From: Parcubacteria bacterium SG8_24
Lineage (GTDB): Bacteria > Patescibacteriota > Patescibacteriia > SG8-24
Reading direction: 5' to 3'
NCBI GenBank assembly: GCA_001303185.1
Contig: LJNP01000001.1
Location: 1-62,749 of the forward strand
Length of the DNA: 62,749 nt
A program made the position numbers and the translations under genes. The notes under the pieces are model-generated. The model did no database searches. It was given only the letters and a program-made list of their open reading frames with translations, and was not told the DNA's origin. Shown here piece after piece: positions 17,926-45,503 of the stretch; the stretch's first letter is position 1; each line of letters begins with the position of its first letter.

Positions 17926-18001
17926 GGGTCGGTAGCTCAGTCGGCAGAGCAGCAGCCTTTTAAGCTGACGGTCCTGGGTTCGAGCCCCAGCCGACCCACC
18001 A
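17926..18001 (+). tRNA. tRNA-Lys (anticodon UUU), CCA encoded
   Basis: Cloverleaf folded by hand: acceptor GGGTCGG/CCGACCC, D arm GCTC...GAGC, anticodon loop CTTTTAA, T arm CTGGG-TTCGAGC-CCCAG, discriminator A, CCA. Confidence 0.95.
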
Positions 18002-33896: not shown

Positions 33897-34454
33897 ATGG
33901 CAGAAGATTTCATCACGCCGTACCGGACGGAGTTCGAGAAGGTGATCGAGTTCCTTAAGGCCGAGATGGCCCAATTGCGGACCGGACGGGCCAATCCGGC
34001 GCTGGTCGAGGGTATCCAGGTCGAAGCCTATGGCGCCAGGACCCCCCTGGTCGGATTGGCTTCCATCACCACGCCTGACGCCCGGACGATAACCATCGAG
34101 TCCTGGGACAAGAGTGTCGTCAAGGATATCGAGAGGGCCATACTCGAAGCCAATATCGGCCTGACTCCCAATGTCGCCGGACAGGTCATCCGGATATCGC
34201 TGCCCCCGCTGACCGAAGAGGGCCGCAAGGACCTGCTCAAGGTCCTGGGCGATAAGTTGGAACACGCCCGGATCGGTATCCGTAAGGTCAGGGACGAGAT
34301 CAAGTCGGAGATCGTCGAGGCGGAGAAGGAGAAACTCATCGGGGAGGACGAGAAGTACAAGAGCCTGGAGGATCTGGACAAGCGGGTAGGGGAATGGAAT
34401 CAGAAGATCAGGGAAATGGGAGAGGAGAAGGAGAAGGAGATCATGACTATCTGA
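33897..34454 (+). CDS. frr: Ribosome recycling factor
   Basis: 185 aa, LRTGRANPALVEGIQVEAYG...NIGLTPN...IRISLPPLTEE.R..L.K. Confidence 0.95.
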   Translation: MAEDFITPYRTEFEKVIEFLKAEMAQLRTGRANPALVEGIQVEAYGARTPLVGLASITTPDARTITIESWDKSVVKDIERAILEANIGLTPNVAGQVIRISLPPLTEEGRKDLLKVLGDKLEHARIGIRKVRDEIKSEIVEAEKEKLIGEDEKYKSLEDLDKRVGEWNQKIREMGEEKEKEIMTI

Positions 34455-34514
34455 TACTGGTCGGCGACGGAGCCGGGCACGGATCGGACCACGTCCCGTA
34501 AGTATAATTACGAA

Positions 34515-34543
34515 GACCTCGACGGTTATGTCGGGGTCTTTTG
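34515..34543 (+). terminator. Rho-independent terminator after frr
   Basis: Stem GACCTCGAC/GTCGGGGTC (one G-U pair) with loop GGTTAT, followed by TTTTG. Confidence 0.7.
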
Positions 34544-34605
34544 ACGTACCTGTTTCTAATTTTAAGCTCAACTGGTCGGATTTAATCACTATTTGTCAGT
34601 GACCA

Positions 34606-34634
34606 TTGACAAAAATAGGAAGGTATGGTATGGT
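34606..34634 (+). promoter_or_regulatory. Near-consensus sigma70 promoter (TTGACA-17-TATGGT)
   Basis: TTGACA at 34606-34611, a 17-nt spacer and TATGGT at 34629-34634. It lies between the frr terminator and an ORF-free structured region. Confidence 0.5.
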
Positions 34635-34728
34635 ACCAGGTCATCGTTCGGTACAACCTGTCCCGGCCAGAGGAATGGAGGGGGGTCTACCCCGTGATCC
34701 AGGGCTTCAGTCCGCGGGTCACGGGGCG

Positions 34729-34839
34729 GCGCCGACATCGGTTACCACCGGTCTCGACTGGAGGTATCCCATGGAAGCGCCACACCGGGGAACCACATAA
34801 CGGTCACCCTCGGTCCCGTCTCCAGCCCTCTTTCCGGGA
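34729..34839 (+). repeat. Module copy 1 of an internal ~110-nt duplication
   Basis: The 55-nt core at 34729-34783 matches 34960-35014 at 52/55 positions. The following ~55 nt show about 70% identity and end in the shared CCGTCTCCAG....TTTCCGGGA. Confidence 0.85.
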
Positions 34840-34959
34840 GCAGAAAGTCACGGCGACACATTTTTCGCCGGACTCGTTCATTAAACACGCTTCCCGGGAA
34901 GCGTCATGGAGGGGGACTCGCCTTGCGGGGACGGACAGCGGTCCGCATCCTGCAGGCAG

Positions 34960-35069
34960 GCGCCGATATCGGTTACCGCCGGTCACGACTGGAGGTATCC
35001 CATGGAAGCGCCACGCTCGGGCGCCTTGACCGGCTACCCTGAGCTCCGTCTCCAGGACGTTTTCCGGGA
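34960..35069 (+). repeat. Module copy 2 of an internal ~110-nt duplication
   Basis: See copy 1. The offset is 231 nt in the same orientation. Confidence 0.85.
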
Positions 35070-35482
35070 ATGGGGAAAATCGGAAGAGGTGAGGGCCTTG
35101 GGTCGACCGGGGCGGTGCGGCCCGTTGACGAGGGCTCGCTGAGCGAGCTTGACGTCCAGGTCAGGCATCGACGGCACGACCGTCTGGCTCAAGCCTCATC
35201 CAGAAGTCAGTCTGCGGGACATCCCGCGCCAGATACGGCGGTCCGCCGGAGATCGGCCGCCCGGAGGCCGCAGAGTATGAGTCATACTCTGTGCCTGATC
35301 GGGCCTGCCGACGGCGTTATGGCCGCCGACCGGACTGCGGAGTACAGGCACTCGTGGGCTCCGGATGGGCCCGTGCCGACCGCAGACTGACTTCACCTTC
35401 GGGCGGAGCGCCCACCAAACCCAAGCCGGGTAATAATGCCCGAGCGTGGCGCTCCGCCCCCCCCCACGACTTGAATAGAATT

Positions 35483-35525
35483 GACCCCGCGGCCGCGGTA
35501 CTTGGCTGCGGGGTCTTTCCTTTTG
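35483..35525 (+). terminator. Rho-independent terminator ending the non-coding unit, 75 nt upstream of glyQS
   Basis: Stem GACCCCGC/GCGGGGTC (35483-35490 / 35508-35515), followed by TTTCCTTTTG. Confidence 0.8.
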
Positions 35526-35599
35526 TCCGGTCTGTTCGAACATCCTTGTCGCGGACGCCGCCTTATGGTACCGTCTTTTAAGCTGACCGTTAGCGTCGT

Positions 35600-36994
35600 A
35601 TGGCCGACATCGAAACCCGCCCGGAACTGATGGAGAAGATCGTCGCTCTGGCCAAGAGGCGCGGTTTTTTGTATCCCGGTTCCGAGATCTACGGCGGCGT
35701 CGGCTCGACCTACGACTACGGACCGCTTGGGGCGCTGCTCAAGATGAACGTCAAACAGGCCTGGTGGAAGTCGGTCGTGGAGCGGCGCGACGACGTCGTC
35801 GGTATCGATTCGGCGATCATCATGCATCCCAAGACCTGGGAGGCTTCGGGGCATCTGCAGGGCTTCACCGACCCCCTGGTCGACTGCAAGGGGTGCCGTA
35901 AGCGGTTCCGGGCCGATCATCTGCTGGAGGGAGAATCGGCCGGTATGCCCGGACTGAAGGAACGACCCAAGGACATCAAGGAGGTCCGCTGTCCGGAGTG
36001 CGGCGGCGAGCTTACCGACGTCCGCCAGTTCAACCTGATGTTCAAGACCTTCATGGGGCCGGTCGAAGACGAGGCTGCGGCGACTTATCTGCGTCCGGAG
36101 ACGGCCCAGGGGATATTCGTCAACTTCGCCAACGTGCTGCAGACCTCGCGGCTGAGGGTGCCTTTCGGTATCGCCCAGATGGGCAAGTCCTTCCGTAACG
36201 AGATCACGCCCGGCAATTTCATCTTCCGCACCCGCGAGTTCGAGCAGATGGAGATGGAGTATTTCGTCAAGCCGGGCACCGACGAGGAATGGTTCGAATT
36301 CTGGAAGGGCTTCATGATGGATTGGTTCGTCTCCCTCGGCGTCAAGGAAGAGAATCTCCGTTTCCAGGAGCACGACAAGGAGGAGCTGTCGCATTACTCC
36401 AAGCGCACGGTCGACCTGGAATACCGCTTCCCTTGGGGCTGGGCCGAACTCTGGGGTTGTGCCAACCGGACCGATTTCGACCTGAAGCAGCACGCCGCGC
36501 TCAGCGGCAAGGACCTGAGTTATCGCGATCCGGTCACCGGCGAGAGTTACGTGCCCTACGTAGTGGAACCGGCCTTGGGCACCGACCGGGCGGTGTTGAC
36601 TTTCCTACTCGACGCCTACGAGGAGATCGAAGGCGGCCGGACGACCACTACCGAGTCGGTCAAGGAGGTGGAAACGGTCCTGCGGCTCCATCCGGCCCTG
36701 GCTCCGGTCAAGGCGGCGATACTGCCGCTCTCGAAAAAAGAGCCGTTGGCGGCCCTGGCCCGGGAGATCCGCGACAGCCTAGCCGGACGACATTCAGTCC
36801 AGTACGACGACACCGGTTCCATCGGCCGACGCTACCGGCGTCAGGATGAGATCGGTACGCCGTACTGCATCACGGTCGATTTCGACACGCCACAGGACCG
36901 GAAAGTGACGGTCCGCGACCGCGATACCATGGAGCAGGAGCGGGTGCCGATAGACGACCTCGGGCCGATGCTCGCCGAGAAGGTCGGTATCTGA
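35600..36994 (+). CDS. glyQS: Glycine--tRNA ligase (alpha2 type)
   Basis: GFLYPGSEIYGG..STYDYGPLG and the class II motif FRNEITPGNFIFRTREFEQMEMEYF. 464 aa. Confidence 0.95.
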   Translation: MADIETRPELMEKIVALAKRRGFLYPGSEIYGGVGSTYDYGPLGALLKMNVKQAWWKSVVERRDDVVGIDSAIIMHPKTWEASGHLQGFTDPLVDCKGCRKRFRADHLLEGESAGMPGLKERPKDIKEVRCPECGGELTDVRQFNLMFKTFMGPVEDEAAATYLRPETAQGIFVNFANVLQTSRLRVPFGIAQMGKSFRNEITPGNFIFRTREFEQMEMEYFVKPGTDEEWFEFWKGFMMDWFVSLGVKEENLRFQEHDKEELSHYSKRTVDLEYRFPWGWAELWGCANRTDFDLKQHAALSGKDLSYRDPVTGESYVPYVVEPALGTDRAVLTFLLDAYEEIEGGRTTTTESVKEVETVLRLHPALAPVKAAILPLSKKEPLAALAREIRDSLAGRHSVQYDDTGSIGRRYRRQDEIGTPYCITVDFDTPQDRKVTVRDRDTMEQERVPIDDLGPMLAEKVGI

Positions 36995-40007: not shown

Positions 40008-40083
40008 GCCGACGTAGCTCAGCTGGTAGAGCAACTCCATGGTAAGGAGTAGGTCACCGGTTCGATCCCGGTCGTCGGCTCCA
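40008..40083 (+). tRNA. tRNA-Thr (anticodon GGU), CCA encoded
   Basis: Acceptor GCCGACG/CGTCGGC, anticodon stem ACTCC/GGAGT with loop ATGGTAA, T arm ACCGG-TTCGATC-CCGGT. Confidence 0.93.
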
Positions 40084-40163
40084 CCCCCCAGCGCTTCGAT
40101 TCATCTGGAGCCTTGGGGGGTGTCTCATCCGACCAGATCGGTTTGAGGCGTTCGTTCCAACAA

Positions 40164-40248
40164 GGGCAGGTTCCGGAGCGGTCAAACGGGGCAGACTGTA
40201 AATCTGCTGGCTTCGCCTTCCCAGGTTCGAATCCTGGCCTGCCCACCA
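40164..40248 (+). tRNA. tRNA-Tyr (anticodon GUA), long variable arm, CCA encoded
   Basis: Acceptor GGGCAGG/CCTGCCC, anticodon loop CTGTAAA, a 13-nt variable arm, T arm CCAGG-TTCGAAT-CCTGG. Confidence 0.93.
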
Positions 40249-40249
40249 T

Positions 40250-40325
40250 GCCGACGTAGCTCAGCTGGTAGAGCGGCGCTTTTGTAAAGCGTTGGTCGTG
40301 GGTTCGAGTCCCTCCGTCGGCTCCA
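40250..40325 (+). tRNA. tRNA-Thr (anticodon UGU), CCA encoded
   Basis: Acceptor GCCGACG/CGTCGGC, anticodon stem GCGCT/AGCGT with loop TTTGTAA. The T arm has one U-U mismatch. It starts 1 nt after tRNA-Tyr. Confidence 0.88.
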
Positions 40326-40397
40326 TTCGCGTCGAGACTGGACATCCCACCCCGGATGGTATAGGCTCCCGATGTCCAGGATAGAACGAAGAAAAGT

Positions 40398-40553
40398 ATG
40401 TCACAGGATAATCTCATCAAACTGGAATGCACCGAATGCAAGCGGGTGAATTACCATTCGCATAAGAACAAGAAGACGCTCAAGGCAAGGCTGGAGATGA
40501 AGAAGTTCTGCAAGTGGTGCAAGAAGCATACTATGCATAAGGAGACCAAATAG
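40398..40553 (+). CDS. rpmG: 50S ribosomal protein L33
   Basis: Manual translation gives [51 protein letters not shown] (CxxC...CxxC zinc ribbon, 51 aa). It is below the ORF-track cutoff. Confidence 0.9.
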
Positions 40554-40655
40554 GGCTCCTGGTCATGGTGTGCTAGAAACGGCGGCCGTGAGGCCGCGTT
40601 TGCTTATAGGCCCGGTGGACAAGGTGCCGGTTTCCGGTTATCATCAGACAGGCAT

Positions 40656-40729
40656 GGGGGCGTAGTTAAATGGTATAACTGCGGTCTCCAAAACCGCTGT
40701 CGGGGGTTCGATTCCCTCCGCCCCTGCCA
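40656..40729 (+). tRNA. tRNA-Trp (anticodon CCA), CCA end encoded
   Basis: Acceptor GGGGGCG/CGCCCCT (G1-U72 wobble), anticodon stem GCGGT/ACCGC with loop CTCCAAA, T arm GGGGG-TTCGATT-CCCTC. Confidence 0.9.
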
Positions 40730-42514: not shown

Positions 42515-43144
42515 ATGATTATGAAGAACGAAAACAGGGGAATCACGTCATTGGTCATCGCGATCATCATCGGCGTCGTCGTGGCGGCAGCTGGAGTCGG
42601 CGGTTACTTCGGCTGGAGGGTTTATAAGGCGAAGAAGGCCGAGACGTTCTCGGTCGTCACCGAAGACGGATCATTGGAGTGGGCCGATGAGTTCGGCAGT
42701 CTGGATTTTTCGGTCTCCGGTCTGGGTGCCGCGGACGTCCCTGACCTGGCGCTCTCCGGGGACCTGGATTTCGCCTTGCCGGATATCGACCTGTCCGGGT
42801 TGTCGGGGGTCGACTTGGATCTGACCGCGCCCGATGTCGGTATTACCGCTCCGGAGCCTGATCTTGGGACGTTAACCTTCGACCTCACGGGGTTGTCGGC
42901 GTTGACCGAGCAGGCCGGTCCGCCATCGGGCGCCGGTCCGCCGGCTGATGTCTCGACGGTAGAGGATGAACCGACCGGGGAGCCTCCCGCCGAGGAACCA
43001 TCGTCCGAACCGTCGCCCGAGTCACAGGCTAATGCCGGTAACTGCGCGCCGTTCGCAGCGATGCCGTCGGCATCGTATTGTTCGCAGGTGGGTGATCCGA
43101 ACGGGCGGGAATTGTGTGAGGACTGCAAGGCGGCAGGGTACTAG
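42515..43144 (+). CDS. Membrane-anchored low-complexity acidic protein
   Basis: TM helix ITSLVIAIIIGVVVAAAGVGGYF. Repetitive DL/PD-rich middle. C-terminal Cys cluster CAPF...YCSQ...CEDC. Confidence 0.7.
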   Translation: MIMKNENRGITSLVIAIIIGVVVAAAGVGGYFGWRVYKAKKAETFSVVTEDGSLEWADEFGSLDFSVSGLGAADVPDLALSGDLDFALPDIDLSGLSGVDLDLTAPDVGITAPEPDLGTLTFDLTGLSALTEQAGPPSGAGPPADVSTVEDEPTGEPPAEEPSSEPSPESQANAGNCAPFAAMPSASYCSQVGDPNGRELCEDCKAAGY

Positions 43145-43200
43145 TTTTCATTACCAGCTGAGACACAAGAGTAGTTCCAACAACGCCCACGAGCCCTTGC

Positions 43201-43251
43201 CACAAAATCTGGCCACCATTCGGTAGCCAGATTTTGTGTGTTGTGACCGCG
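43201..43251 (+). repeat. Hairpin plus TGTTGTGACCG motif, copy 1 (probable terminator)
   Basis: A 13-bp stem CACAAAATCTGGC/GCCAGATTTTGTG (43201-43213 / 43226-43238), directly followed by TGTTGTGACCG. Confidence 0.7.
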
Positions 43252-43326
43252 AAGAGTGGACTGTTCTCGCCACGAAGAGGCGACTCTCCTTGTGATGACC
43301 GCCTTCCCGTGTTAGAGTGCCCGTCT

Positions 43327-43662
43327 ATGAAAAAGATCTCCTGGCAAGATTTCGAGGATGTCGAGCTCCGCGTCGGCACGATTCTGGAAGTAGAGAATTT
43401 TCTTGGGGCGAAGATTCCCGCCTACAAGGTCATGGTTGATTTCGGGGAATATGGCATCAAACGATCGAGTGCGCGGATCACCGACCTGTACACGTCTGAT
43501 GGGCTGGTCGGGAAACAGGTCATCGGCGTTATCAATTTCGCCCCGAAAAAGGTAGGGCCGTTCATTTCCGAAGTGTTGATCACCGGTTTCTATCGGGAAG
43601 ACGGTCGGGTGGTCTTGGCCGTGCCGGACAAGCCTGTAAAGAACGGTTCTAAGCTCGGATAG
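43327..43662 (+). CDS. tRNA-binding domain protein (CsaA/Trbp111-like)
   Basis: Internal start MKKISWQDFEDVELRVGTILEVENF...AYKVMVDFG...GKQVIGVINFAPKK, the OB-fold tRNA_bind signature. Confidence 0.85.
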   Translation: MKKISWQDFEDVELRVGTILEVENFLGAKIPAYKVMVDFGEYGIKRSSARITDLYTSDGLVGKQVIGVINFAPKKVGPFISEVLITGFYREDGRVVLAVPDKPVKNGSKLG

Positions 43663-43852
43663 ACGTCAGAGTTCCGACGATATCCCCGAATCTCTGCTAG
43701 ATACGGCCGATACGCCTTATGGGTGTCGGCCGGATTTGATTTGGGATGGATAAGGAATCGAACGGGCGCGAGAGGACGCGAGCTGGCGCAGCGTCCGGTG
43801 CGTAGCGCCCCGGAGCCCGGGCGGAGCGAGGGACGATTACCTCCGTCCCTGC

Positions 43853-43899
43853 CAGAAAACGGCATCCCTTTGGGGAGGCCGTTTTCTGTGTTGTGACCG
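43853..43899 (+). repeat. Hairpin plus TGTTGTGACCG motif, copy 2 (probable terminator)
   Basis: An 11-bp stem CAGAAAACGGC/GCCGTTTTCTG (43853-43863 / 43878-43888), directly followed by the same 11-mer TGTTGTGACCG. Confidence 0.7.
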
Positions 43900-43976
43900 G
43901 GAGGGGGAAACGAACGGGAACAAGGTCTCACCTGTCGGCATTGGTCACAGACCGCCATTTATTTTGGACGGCACTG

Positions 43977-43985
43977 TGCTATAAT
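43977..43985 (+). promoter_or_regulatory. Extended -10 promoter element (TGcTATAAT)
   Basis: A perfect TATAAT at 43980-43985 preceded by TGn, about 50 nt upstream of CDS 44036. Confidence 0.4.
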
Positions 43986-44035
43986 GTGCGTCAGCCCGAT
44001 CTAATCAATATCATAAGTCTATACTCGAACATCAT

Positions 44036-44377
44036 ATGGAAGTGCTTTCAGCCGGAGAGAAGGTCCACATCATCGAAAGGCGGGTTTTCGCCGGTCAGCC
44101 GCGCCGTCATTTCATAGGTGAGATCAAGGTAGCCACCCCTCACGCCATCAGGATCAGTGGTTATGCCTGGCTCTATGACATCAAGAGCGGCACGTATGTA
44201 AGGCGGCCGGGATTGCGGCTGCGCGTCATTTACCTGGGTGCGGGAATGATCATCAACCTCATCCCTCAAGAGGTCGATATCGATTCCATCCGATATACCA
44301 AGGACGAGTCCGGTATCGCGCGCATCACCGACGGCAAGGAATATGGACTGGATCTCAATGAATTGATAACCGACTGA
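44036..44377 (+). CDS. Hypothetical protein (113 aa)
   Basis: Beta-rich, protein-like sequence. No confident motif was found. Confidence 0.6.
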   Translation: MEVLSAGEKVHIIERRVFAGQPRRHFIGEIKVATPHAIRISGYAWLYDIKSGTYVRRPGLRLRVIYLGAGMIINLIPQEVDIDSIRYTKDESGIARITDGKEYGLDLNELITD

Positions 44378-44465
44378 GGACCTTGATGTTTGTCGCGAAC
44401 CCCCGCCGGATATTGAATCGATATCAGACGAATCCCGACTTGAACGGTAAACACCGACGACATCT

Positions 44466-45503
44466 ATGAAGAATATTCAAAAGATCATGGTCGGAGGCGG
44501 TATCGCGGTGATCGTCATCATCGCGGCTTGGTTGATTTGGCCCGATGGTCGTTCCGGCGAGGGGGTGATGACCGTCACCTCAGACGACGGGCTGGCGGAA
44601 CTGAGCATACCGCCGGGGGCCTTACCCGCTGATGTGGCGATCGGGGACATCGGGGTCGTACCGGCGACCGAGGCGGACCTGCGAGCTGAGCTCGGACTTG
44701 AGGACCTCGCCGAAGGCGAAGAATCCACGCTGCTGGCCTACGACCTGCTCCCGGATGGGATCGAGTTCCGCGTTCCGGTCACCGTGACCATCACGCATGA
44801 GACCAACGAGGGCGGGGTGATCCCAGCGCTGTTCCACGTGGCCGACGGCGAATTCGAGCTCATCGCGGATACGGAGGTATCCATCGATGCCGAGACCGGA
44901 CGGACCAGCGTTTCGGGTGATATCTCGCATTTCAGCTATGTCGGTTCCGACATAGACACGCTCTATCAGGAAGGCGGAGGGATGTTCAATTACGAATTGA
45001 CGTCCGGCGGTCAGGGAGAGGTCGGCGACACCTTCCCGTATCATCTGACGATCACGCCGAACCAGAATTTCTCCTGGTTCAAGAGCGGCGGGGGCCCCGA
45101 TAAGTTATGGGGCTACAACTACAGGATGGCGCCGATGACCACCTGGAAGGTCCGCGGCTTCAACGTCATGACCAGACACGACGGGGTGATCGAGCCCATG
45201 ACCCTGTCGAGTAACGGCGGTGATTTCAAGGGGTCGGAGTCTTTCGTGCTCGAGGGAGAGCATACCTGCATAGAGGACGGGGAGAACTCGCTTTTCATTC
45301 CCCCGCCGGATTCCTATATCAAGATCGAGTATCGGATGGAAAAGGAATTCCGCAGGGGCAAGAGTTATCGTAACGCGACCACCAGGATCTATATCGAGGG
45401 CGGTCGCTTCGTCTGTGAAGAGCTGGAGGGGGGGTGGGTCCGGGTGCAGGTACCCCCCATGTGCATCGATGAGGCGACCGGTACGCAGGTGCCCTGTGAT
45501 TGA
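44466..45503 (+). CDS. N-terminally anchored extracytoplasmic hypothetical protein
   Basis: TM helix VGGGIAVIVIIAAWLIW followed by an acidic beta-rich ectodomain. Confidence 0.7.
   Translation: MKNIQKIMVGGGIAVIVIIAAWLIWPDGRSGEGVMTVTSDDGLAELSIPPGALPADVAIGDIGVVPATEADLRAELGLEDLAEGEESTLLAYDLLPDGIEFRVPVTVTITHETNEGGVIPALFHVADGEFELIADTEVSIDAETGRTSVSGDISHFSYVGSDIDTLYQEGGGMFNYELTSGGQGEVGDTFPYHLTITPNQNFSWFKSGGGPDKLWGYNYRMAPMTTWKVRGFNVMTRHDGVIEPMTLSSNGGDFKGSESFVLEGEHTCIEDGENSLFIPPPDSYIKIEYRMEKEFRRGKSYRNATTRIYIEGGRFVCEELEGGWVRVQVPPMCIDEATGTQVPCD

Follow-up and report, generated by a model that had tools for sequence, protein, structure and literature searches.

The window, i.e., the whole stretch of 62,749 nt that was analysed, contains frr (33897-34454) and glyQS (35600-36994), which are separated by a gap of 1,145 nt (34455-35599). 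GC content is 0.60-0.70 over 34600-35500 and 0.58-0.65 in the flanking genes, and none of the four gap ORFs (34625-35029, 35070-35390, 35196-35543 on the minus strand and 35291-35581) has a match in Pfam. Coordinates, composition and ORFs agree with the initial annotation, which described the gap as non-coding and GC-rich. The sole other checked stretch above 1 kb without an ORF of at least 150 aa (43144-44466) holds plausible smaller genes. As had also been proposed, the peptide repeat encoded by ORF 34625-35029 (GRRRHRLPPVSTGGIPWKRH / GRRRYRLPPVTTGGIPWKRH) mirrors a duplication in the DNA, since we find a direct repeat with a spacing of 231 nt. For 34640-35525, the MFE z-score relative to shuffled sequences is -10.3 on the plus and -8.6 on the minus strand. 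That is, the region folds much better than shuffles, as expected from the many helices and the structured RNA claimed for it.

The features of the gap are collected in Table 1. Its promoter is the only promoter-like site within 34000-36000, and both RNA modules presumably share it. A near-consensus promoter had been predicted there before; in 21/21 loci, we observe a promoter of the type TTGACA-17-TGnTATAGT that precedes the first RNA copy by 44-71 nt. The overlapping palindrome, a putative operator site to which a dimeric regulator may bind, has a single exact match in the whole 62.7-kb window, and most relatives, too, have the arrangement TTGTCA...TTGACAA upstream of the RNA. The predicted leader (GUCAUCGUUCGGUACAA) is similar to GUUGAUCGUUAGAA in relatives, and we infer a transcription start near 34641, as well as the RNA's ends and stability, from sequence. 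Terminators had been proposed for frr (34515-34543) and for the end of the unit (35483-35525), and both can be recognized. The former aligns with the terminator hairpin portion of an unrelated Rfam model, is missing from the list of the terminator scan because its T-run is short, and likely sets frr apart from the RNA unit. The latter ends 75 nt before glyQS.

Table 1. Features of the frr-glyQS gap (window positions).
Feature	Position	Strand	Description and basis
Likely frr terminator	34516-34543	+	9-bp stem GACCUCGAC/GUCGGGGUC, then UUUU; read from sequence
Candidate operator	34594-34611	.	inverted repeat TGTCA-N8-TGACA; overlaps -35 hexamer
Sigma-70-type promoter	34606-34634	+	TTGACA-17-(TG)TATGGT; TG extension, 10/12 matches
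Predicted 5' leader	34641-34656	+	start inferred ~7 nt past -10 hexamer; upstream sequences of 21 loci
RNA module 1	34657-34847	+	~190 nt; covariance models, single-sequence fold, covariation
Module 1 P1b	34676-34681 / 34819-34824	+	UGGAGG pairs with UCUCCA; inner segment of closing helix P1
Module 1 hairpins	P2 includes 34690-34726; P3 34728-34782; P4 ~34787-34815	+	P3 long
Linker hairpin	34852-34869	+	GGCGA/UCGCC between modules; MFE fold
RNA module 2	34888-35077	+	architecture as module 1; covariance models, fold
Module 2 elements	P1b 34907-34912 / 35049-35054; P3 34959-35013	+	
3' extension (tail)	35078-35482	+	self-complementary; three sub-domains, unconserved
Tail sub-domains	35082-35201; 35203-35394; 35401-35459	+	second with perfect 15-bp, third with perfect 12-bp closing helix
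Inverted 16-nt segment	35438-35453	+	perfect reverse complement of module 2 core 35007-35022
Intrinsic terminator	35483-35525 (stem 35483-35515)	+	closes unit; 13-bp stem, 10 G-C pairs, then TTTCCTTTTG

The initial annotation of one ~0.9-kb structured RNA has to be replaced: the conserved and covariation-supported entity is a module of ~190 nt that is present twice, i.e., the duplication in the gap, which the initial annotation had mentioned only in passing, consists of two tandem module copies. On the plus strand, module 1 scores 183 bits with covariance model (CM) R1 and 139.6 bits with CM R2 (reverse complement 44 bits); the respective values of module 2, which has an aligned identity of 67% with module 1, are 185.6 and 140 bits (reverse complement 46 bits). 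In the module fold, a long closing helix P1 joins the 5' and 3' ends and leads into a four-way junction with the hairpins P2, P3 and P4, each capped by a stable tetraloop. Invariant nucleotides concentrate on the strands of the junction and in the inner P1, where UGGAGG pairs with UCUCCA and includes a G-U pair; the purine-rich GA/GA internal loop of P3, the ACC bulge of P4 and the CGG/CUG box, which contains a G-U pair and is located below the tetraloop of P3, are invariant as well. Inter-module linkers are not conserved across the family and measure 5-138 nt in relatives, or 488 nt in locus L089, where the linker contains an ORF. Regarding the helices pointed out earlier, the hairpin 34690-34700/34716-34726 exists, but with 10 of the supposed 11 base pairs, and the 18-nt palindrome (34887-34904) is confirmed, yet within the conserved fold it serves as 5' strand of copy 2's P1 instead of a hairpin. 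The 15-bp (35203-35217/35380-35394), 12-bp (35401-35412/35448-35459) and 10-bp (35271-35291) helices are all perfect. Most of the helices that had been listed as perfect fall into the unconserved tail.

RNAalifold predicts 46 base pairs for a sequence-only MAFFT alignment of 32 copies, 36 of them with compensatory changes. Given the 53-pair structure, 88.9% of the cells of the sequence-only alignment pair, compared to 30-49% in controls with slid partners, and compensatory double changes are found in 42/53 pairs; none of 500 shuffles matches any of these measures. That is, the module shape is maintained by compensating mutations. Invariant G-U pairs fix the RNA strand (G99-U108 is G-U in 32/32 copies, G25-U181 in 28/32), and the copies reach CM scores of 96-175 bits on the plus strand versus 22-60 bits for the reverse complements. 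Among unpaired columns, pseudoknot or tertiary covariation was seen only for pairs with near-invariant G's, none of which is convincing.

Counting the window, the covariance models detect 33 copies that are distributed over 21 distinct loci. All loci belong to Uhrbacteria-like Patescibacteria, the strand of the RNA is invariably that of frr/glyQS, and both tandem and singlet forms occur. Across the whole window, R2 detects two copies only. We define a family member as a closed four-way junction of ~190 nt with AUGGAGG ... CUCCA in the inner P1, the P3 CGG/CUG box and at least ~95 bits for R2. Both window copies fall within this definition with 140 bits, a value that is not independent since they are among the sequences that built R2. 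Locus L118, which was left out of model building, scores 95.8 bits with R2 and has G-C in place of A-U within P1b, which is invariant elsewhere. Clustering groups the copy 1 sequences of nine genomes together, and likewise their copy 2 sequences, which suggests that two paralogues have been retained over the long term, in fixed order and in many species. The closest relative by GlyRS has 80% identity. A GlyRS search of genome contigs listed matches of at most 61% identity from other phyla, none of which carries the RNA, and 80 unrelated glyQS loci gave no match to the family RNA. A metagenome pattern scan returned 28 matches; 13 are chance matches inside coding sequences, mostly within one conserved gene, by eye presumably an anaerobic ribonucleotide reductase. 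A 27-bit R2 match in L110 is one of these chance matches and was rejected as a family member. Conservation in relatives, on which the earlier proposal was to be judged, is therefore seen for the modules (21 loci including the window) but not for the tail, for which blastn finds no match in any relative.

Rfam 15 yields nothing at gathering score within the gap and only chance-level matches of 13-17 bits at E<=10, in accordance with the earlier failure to assign the RNA to a known family. The loci of six relatives have no Rfam match, and in four further ones none covers the RNA at E<=5. Neither the tRNA nor the tmRNA model of Rfam reports anything in the gap, and the five tRNAs reported by ARAGORN are all elsewhere in the window. 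Phage, plasmid and viral-contig collections contain no match to the RNA. The module RNA is a family that is in no RNA-family database (Rfam 15) and undescribed in the literature that we searched.

We also compared the module RNA with known systems. The raiA motif (RF03072) is a covariation-supported multi-helix junction RNA of ~200 nt, located upstream of genes, apparently with its own promoter and terminator and restricted to certain lineages; the module RNA resembles it in size, junction fold, covariation, self-containment and restricted distribution. It differs in that it matches neither RF03072 nor another Rfam family at E<=10, is found in Patescibacteria, i.e., another phylum, in two tandem paralogous copies, and has a sequence-invariant helix segment (UGGAGG/UCUCCA). 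Glycine riboswitches (RF00504) combine homologous domains in series, tandem and singlet versions, conserved junction cores and variable stems, all of which also hold for the module RNA on its one transcript. However, their aptamer is a three-way junction of ~100 nt in contrast to a four-way junction of ~190 nt. The module RNA does not match RF00504, is followed by hypothetical small ORFs or glyQS instead of glycine-metabolism (cleavage/transport) genes, and its adjacency to glyQS is broken by terminators or other genes in relatives. A glyQS T-box leader (RF00230) would likewise be located upstream on the same strand, measure ~180-200 nt and be followed by an intrinsic terminator. Here, the module RNA differs by the missing RF00230 match even at E<=10, by having neither the Stem I specifier loop nor the T-box sequence, by its closed four-way junction with paired ends (versus serial stems), and by its presence in two copies and also away from glyQS (L107). 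Finally, 6S RNA (RF00013) is a stand-alone gene of ~190 nt with a strong promoter, a long closing helix that pairs its ends and, in some bacteria, two paralogues, i.e., features shared by the module RNA. While 6S RNA has a large single-stranded central bubble, the junction strands of the module comprise only ~2-6 nt, and each side of the would-be 'bubble' is a long hairpin with a tetraloop cap, with P2 and P4 stable and covarying; moreover, the module RNA has no RF00013 match and is missing from close outgroups. The identity with a template or spacer RNA of a diversity-generating retroelement was rejected, as a reverse transcriptase with TR/VR pair is present in 1/21 loci only (L118) and uses a separate 121-nt repeat. 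Such a template origin was also discarded for the window copies, whose differences include C>T, A>G and T>A and are hence not adenine-specific.

The tail shows MFE z-scores of -7.4 (plus strand) and -5.6 (minus strand), i.e., it folds nearly as well on the other strand because its long helices are without G-U pairs. It is not repeated elsewhere in the window, its ORFs are without Pfam match, and R2 does not detect a third, divergent module within its 192-nt sub-domain 35203-35394. Its inverted segment is complementary to the P3 3' strand, the junction and the P4 5' strand of module 2 with 100% identity over 16 nt, for which we estimate a chance expectation of ~1e-4 in ~1 kb; it may have arisen as a partial copy in inverted orientation, or it could pair as an antisense segment. 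We are evenly divided on whether the tail is no functional part of the RNA but debris of a small-ORF cassette plus an inverted partial duplication of module 2, with its hairpins as by-products of GC-rich palindromic DNA. The lack of conservation in relatives, the position exactly at that of their small acidic ORF, the inverted core copy (approximate over ~31 nt) and the perfection of the long helices argue for debris. On the other hand, no residual likeness to the relatives' small proteins is found, a z-score of -7.4 is extreme for a decaying sequence, the tail is inside the transcription unit ahead of its terminator, and the conservation comparison is limited to relatives with at best 80% GlyRS identity. 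A decayed small ORF in the tail (PEVSLRDIPRQIRRSA vs PEGVSVEEFLDALRRAA), suggested by a by-eye likeness, was dropped given E>0.01 for HMM/phmmer on a tiny database.

A small ORF preceded by a strong Shine-Dalgarno sequence begins 13-136 nt past the last module in at least 15/21 loci, such that the RNA is also a 5' UTR there. P1 is directly followed by a U-run (>=4 U) in 19/33 copies, while GC-rich members are without it. The downstream proteins are acidic, fast-evolving and hypothetical, and they are absent in 5/21 loci. The small ORF family has 19 homologues, all hypothetical, and no Pfam match, and an AlphaFold model (pLDDT 77) has no PDB match at E<0.1. Intrinsic terminators are found directly 3' of the RNA in L118, L101 and L087, and promoter-like sites precede glyQS in L081-L083 (scan) as well as in L101 and L102 (by eye). 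In the window, no sigma-70-like promoter was found between terminator and glyQS, so glyQS might rely on read-through there. The initial annotation had named a giant cis-acting leader of glyQS as an alternative. This is weakened by the terminators, small genes and even a retroelement between or beside RNA and glyQS in relatives, but it keeps some probability for the window, where no separate glyQS promoter was detected. We note that the layout (RNA as 5' UTR, U-run after P1) counts against a stand-alone RNA in so far as it equally fits an attenuator, and that the invariant GGAGG/CUCC helix could perform Shine-Dalgarno/anti-Shine-Dalgarno switching instead of binding.

Overall, we lean, if only slightly, towards reading the gap as an autonomous gene whose product is a structured, lineage-specific non-coding RNA. 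Comparative data support the strand, the promoter and the autonomy from frr that had been proposed for the unit. Autonomy is further supported by the terminators and promoter-like sites of relatives, by the different gene context of the RNA in L107, by the retroelement between frr and the RNA in L118, and by the outgroups L119 and L122, in which frr and glyQS are almost adjacent and the RNA is absent. The RNA would act in trans as a stable RNA, and its conserved core would bind a protein or small ligand. P1 would shield the RNA ends and, in AT-richer relatives, may additionally serve as terminator stem, with optional read-through expressing the small acidic protein encoded just downstream, whose gene would be missing or decayed in the window. 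The frr-glyQS location would be an inherited insertion site without functional link to glyQS.

A cis-acting, riboswitch-like sensory leader is an explanation that we take seriously but doubt. Here, each of the tandem or singlet aptamer modules would bind a ligand or factor, and either P1 (often with its U-run) or a downstream terminator would form and attenuate transcription, or UCUCCA, the invariant strand, would mask the Shine-Dalgarno sequence ahead of the small ORF or govern read-through to glyQS. The constant strand and position upstream of an ORF or glyQS are in accordance with this, as are the U-runs, the strong Shine-Dalgarno sequences within 13-40 nt in many loci, and the window's undetected glyQS promoter. 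The same holds for conserved nucleotides within junction and internal loops next to variable, tetraloop-capped stems, i.e., the usual anatomy of aptamers, and for the coexistence of tandem and singlet forms, which is known from glycine riboswitches. Such a leader is, however, hard to reconcile with the functional incoherence of what follows (hypothetical acidic proteins, glyQS, or nothing) and with the full conservation of the RNA where no ORF follows (window, L087, L101, L102, L118). Furthermore, terminators and promoter-like sites separate RNA and glyQS in relatives, GC-rich members do without the U-run, and an alternative (anti-terminator) pairing was not found.

It is somewhat less probable still, and thus suggested tentatively, that the two-module RNA represents a new functional RNA class of Uhrbacteria-like Patescibacteria, i.e., a tandem ligand sensor or a ribonucleoprotein or ribozyme core. 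A sensor may be tandem, cooperative or heterodimeric; for a ribonucleoprotein or ribozyme, the Shine-Dalgarno-like GGAGG/CUCC helix and the GA-rich loop may engage the translation apparatus or another partner. Two distinct paralogues in fixed order and the operator-like promoter element fit such a class.

We consider it distinctly unlikely that the RNA belongs to a variable accessory island, be it as type III-like antitoxin, as partner RNA of the small protein, or tied to a retroelement or other mobile DNA that targets frr-glyQS as a hotspot. The idea draws on the gap itself, which spans 1.1 to 3.1 kb with non-homologous small ORF cassettes in the clade, while frr and glyQS are 3-10 nt apart without RNA in the outgroups L119 and L122. 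Furthermore, a complete diversity-generating retroelement is located between frr and the RNA in L118, RNA and small ORF occur together in another gene context in L107, and L089 holds two promoter-RNA-ORF units. The order of promoter, repeated RNA, U-run or terminator and ORF on one transcript also recalls type III toxin-antitoxin loci, in which a promoter, repeated RNA and a terminator-like element precede an ORF. Nevertheless, ToxI-type repeats are pseudoknots of ~34-40 nt and no ~190-nt four-way junctions, the acidic proteins downstream of the module RNA are unrelated to ToxN/AbiQ and unlike ToxN-type RNases, they lack Pfam and PDB fold matches, and the RNA persists where they are missing, including the window. 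None of ten island proteins matches PADLOC, PHROGs matches are at chance level only, and neither an integrase or transposase in the island nor a phage or plasmid match supports mobility; the retroelement is restricted to 1/21 loci.

A decayed pseudogene or unannotated small protein gene, e.g., an ORF from the AUG of AUGGAGG, retains next to no probability and is effectively refuted for the modules: the AUG is invariant in 33/33 copies and the window gap has open frames of 41-134 codons, but the frame from the AUG to the conserved block is 0, 1 or 2 depending on the copy, ORFs from the AUG span 7 to >57 codons, 14/33 copies have stops in all three frames, module lengths (182-199 nt) differ by non-multiples of 3, helix substitutions are compensatory, and Pfam matches are absent.

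Patescibacteria (candidate phyla radiation) have tiny genomes and are almost all uncultured; to our knowledge, little has been reported on their non-coding RNAs. For such genomes, one or two copies of a ~190-nt junction RNA under a near-consensus, apparently regulated promoter are unusually costly to keep, and this implies a genuine role in the cell. Time and again, orphan RNAs of large size and intricate fold have proved to be riboswitches, ribozymes or the cores of ribonucleoproteins. With the alignment and the covariance model, the RNA family can be searched for, and a construct for further study is defined. Finally, we observe that the 'hypothetical proteins' called by annotation pipelines across these gaps overlap the RNA gene.

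The gap between frr and glyQS carries a new structured RNA family that is supported by covariation, has a defined strand, a conserved promoter and tandem paralogues, and is independent of coding. The family is real and apparently undescribed, i.e., no description of it was found in the searched literature. Coordinates of all main features are listed in the table.

The 1,145 nt between the two genes hold no credible ORF. Open frames are Arg/Pro/Gly-rich, none of the four tested has a Pfam match, and the repeated peptide in the longest one (34625-35029) mirrors a direct DNA repeat with a spacing of 231 nt, just as the initial annotation had read it. Its remark on a coding-like base composition also holds (GC of 0.60-0.70, matching coding DNA). 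The promoter and terminator that it had placed around a transcription unit were both found by scan. Folding of 34640-35525 yields an energy of -491 kcal/mol, with z = -10.3 for the plus and -8.6 for the minus strand compared to dinucleotide shuffles. The reported lack of a match to known RNA families was reproduced on the gap, i.e., Rfam 15 gives no match at gathering score and chance-level ones at E<=10, and ARAGORN detects neither tRNA nor tmRNA.

The best GlyRS homologues (75-80% identical) belong to Patescibacteria, several of them labelled Candidatus Uhrbacteria; the window's GlyRS itself has no database record. The respective contigs share the gene order BNR protein, frr, gap, glyQS, M16 peptidase and TIM; the gap measures 1.3-3.1 kb. 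When folded separately, both repeat halves of the window adopt one shape, namely a long closing helix P1 of three segments that leads to a four-way junction with three hairpins (P2 to P4), and two stretches of the relative L084 show the same fold with differing stem sequences. A first covariance model built on these four sequences finds two copies in the window, one or two in every syntenic relative (without exception on the frr/glyQS strand) and none among 80 glyQS loci of other phyla. The coordinates and the transcription unit initially proposed are correct, but the functional unit is a module of about 190 nt, present twice, instead of a single 0.9-kb fold. The helices listed for that fold are present in the sequence, with an "11-bp" hairpin that really pairs 10/11 and an 18-nt palindrome that belongs to a longer helix.

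For metagenomes, we scanned with a three-block pattern drawn from invariant positions, which added 15 true loci; four of these repeat contigs already covered (L104 and L113 duplicate L084 and L101). The remaining 13 pattern matches are chance hits within coding genes. Seven of these (L090, L103, L106, L110, L112, L114, L117) all span 139 nt of one conserved coding sequence (...NRAFCEVMMEGDASGRIFSFPIPTYNI...), so the DNA pattern alone is unspecific; L110 reaches 27 bits with the second covariance model, R2. By eye, this coding sequence is anaerobic ribonucleotide reductase-like. The total amounts to 33 copies at 21 distinct loci, counting the window's two copies and L118, a locus of Ca. Uhrbacteria GCA_016929435.1 (JAFGIV010000017.1).

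Coordinates of the main features in the window and at selected loci of relatives
Feature	Location	Coordinates	Remark
frr	window	33897-34454	intact gene
Operator-like inverted repeat	window	34594-34611	overlaps -35 hexamer; unique in window
Sigma-70-like promoter	window	34606-34634	TTGACA-17-TATGGT with TG extension; sole site in 34000-36000 (promoter scan)
Module 1	window	34657-34847	first model
Module 2	window	34889-35077	first model
Terminator	window	35483-35515	13-bp G+C-rich stem; scan
glyQS	window	35600-36994	intact gene
Small ORF	L081	1370-1939	
Small ORF	L083	1518-2054	
Small ORF	L084	2446-2805	
Small ORF	L107	1361-1792	minus strand
Diversity-generating retroelement	L118	1093-3560	complete; between frr and RNA
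Retroelement target gene	L118		195 aa; variable repeat 1553-1673
Template repeat	L118	2004-2124	82% identical to variable repeat
bAvd gene	L118	2133-2501	
Reverse transcriptase	L118	2532-3560	

Within the module, the outer helix P1a comprises about 14 covarying pairs and is followed by P1b with the invariant UGGAGG/UCUCCA, including a G-U pair, and then GGA. P2 varies in length and ends mostly in a UUCG-type loop. P3 is a long hairpin whose base is G+C-rich; it has an internal loop rich in purines (GA on each strand) and, beneath a UNCG-type tetraloop, an invariant CGG/CUG box (C-G, G-U, G-C) flanked by covarying pairs. P4, in two segments, has an ACC bulge that is conserved. The apical loops are all stable tetraloops that vary, and the information is concentrated in the junction, inner P1 and the internal loops. 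The module alignment shows no convincing pseudoknot covariation.

Covariation was assessed on a sequence-only MAFFT alignment of 32 copies, for which RNAalifold gives 46 pairs; compensatory double changes occur in 36 of these. A 53-pair structure written by hand (P1a, P1b, base of P2, P3a-d, P4a-b) has standard pairs in 88.9% of the cells versus 30-49% after shifting the 3' partners by 1-3 columns. Both sides are changed in 42 of its pairs, and none of 500 column shuffles reaches any of the five measures, such that the structured RNA initially suspected here is confirmed by covariation. The strand is fixed since G-U pairs (G99-U108 in 32/32 copies, G25-U181 in 28/32, others frequent) would be A-C mismatches on the opposite strand; R2 scores are 96-175 bits for the plus strand versus 22-60 bits for the reverse complement. 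L118, which is outside R2's building set, scores 95.8 bits and shows an A-U to G-C change within the inner P1 helix, elsewhere invariant. A coding reading is ruled out because stops interrupt all three frames in 14/33 copies, module lengths (182-199 nt) vary by steps that are not multiples of three, the frame in which the conserved blocks follow the invariant AUG (in AUGGAGG) is 0, 1 or 2 depending on the copy, and ORFs from this AUG range from 7 to >57 codons.

All 21 loci show a TTGACA-17-TGnTATAGT-type promoter 44-71 nt 5' of the first module. At most of them, a TTGTCA half-site lies some 8 nt further upstream and, with the -35 hexamer, makes up the inverted repeat TTGTCA-N8-TGACAA, which resembles an operator. 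Second modules are without a promoter of their own, L089 excepted, and follow after linkers of 5-138 nt (488 nt including an ORF in L089). In nine genomes first copies group together and second copies group together, i.e., the duplication is old and both paralogues were retained in fixed order; the two copies of the window, L089 and L101 are each nearer to one another (63-67% identity). Seven loci show a single copy, in L092 and L098 with a contig end downstream of it. In L082, the whole promoter is duplicated (870-910 and 1695-1735, 93% identical) and one copy drives a separate small ORF (972-1364), which suggests a small co-regulated gene set in the island. The 128-138-nt linkers at L081:1038-1165, L082:1949-2080 and L108:860-997 (minus strand) form a long, conserved hairpin whose changes look compensatory by eye; 41 nt of this hairpin occur again directly behind frr (L081:149-189), and the L083 linker is a perfect 34-bp palindrome instead.

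We infer that the RNA would be autonomous, stable and trans-acting via a conserved binding core. P1 would protect the ends and often double as terminator stem, and read-through would allow optional small-ORF expression. At least four U directly follow P1 in 19/33 copies, and L118, L101 and L087 have a classical terminator after the RNA. The main rival is a riboswitch-like cis-acting sensor, for which speak the conservation centred on the junction, the tandem and singlet forms, the U-runs, the nearby Shine-Dalgarno sequences and, in the window, the lack of a detected sigma-70-like promoter of glyQS (35526-35599). In relatives, however, terminators and promoter-like sites precede glyQS, the latter in L081-L083 (scan) and in L101 and L102 (by eye). 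In L081-L083 this site, of the type TTGCCT-17-TATATT, ends some 9 nt ahead of the start codon, and glyQS may thus have a very short leader there or none. Furthermore, the genes downstream of the RNA are incoherent or missing.

In at least 15/21 loci, the gene downstream is a small ORF coding for an acidic protein; it has a strong Shine-Dalgarno sequence and starts 13-136 nt past the last module. The respective proteins (108-190 aa) are fast-evolving and homologous inside sub-groups, match no family in Pfam, PADLOC or PHROGs, and in a set of 5.8 billion proteins show no more than 19 homologues; an AlphaFold model (pLDDT 77) matches nothing in the PDB. A role bound to the variable island, i.e., a type III-like RNA-protein pair or a retroelement, is the weaker rival with little positive support: RNA and small ORF do occur together within another gene context (L107), and the L118 retroelement adjoins the RNA's promoter on its upstream side. 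By the respective defining tests, the RNA is no T-box, glycine riboswitch, 6S RNA or tRNA/tmRNA, nor is it an antitoxin RNA of type III or a template RNA of a DGR. Tandem glycine riboswitches are similar in layout, whereas raiA and like orphan structured ncRNAs are closest in mode of working to the trans-acting RNA that we favour; it is a member of neither.

In the outgroup Patescibacteria L119 and L122 (GlyRS 67-68% identical; one is labelled Magasanikbacteria), only 3-10 nt separate frr from glyQS (L119:3449-4001, L122:3442-4001), so the whole 1-3-kb gap is an insertion in the Uhrbacteria-like clade. The RNA is absent from L119, L120, L121 and L122. Given these RNA-free outgroups and the context exceptions, RNA and island are derived in one clade and no universal housekeeping RNA. 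In these minimal-genome bacteria, the RNA is complex, duplicated and apparently regulated.

The window is without the small ORF, whose place is taken by the 3' 400 nt (35078-35482). Searches give no similarity of this tail to the relatives' small proteins, no counterpart in relatives (blastn) and no further copy in the window. Its folding is unusually strong, with z of -7.4 (plus strand) and -5.6 (minus strand), and gives three sub-domains with perfect closing helices. Over 16 nt, its positions 35438-35453 match the reverse complement of 35007-35022 in the core of module 2 perfectly (about 31 nt with mismatches). This stretch arose by inverted partial duplication or else serves as a built-in antisense element. 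The tail as a whole is about as likely to be rearrangement debris as an extension that is functional and specific to this lineage, which might act as an antisense switch on module 2; the closest relative for comparison has a GlyRS of 80% identity.

Elsewhere in the window, the sole Rfam/ARAGORN matches are five tRNA genes, namely a cluster of Thr-GGT, Tyr-GTA, Thr-TGT and Trp-CCA (40008-40729) and a lone tRNA-Lys (17926-18001). In another apparently "empty" stretch, a 142-aa ORF (43234-43662) resembles by eye a CsaA/EMAP-type tRNA-binding domain protein.
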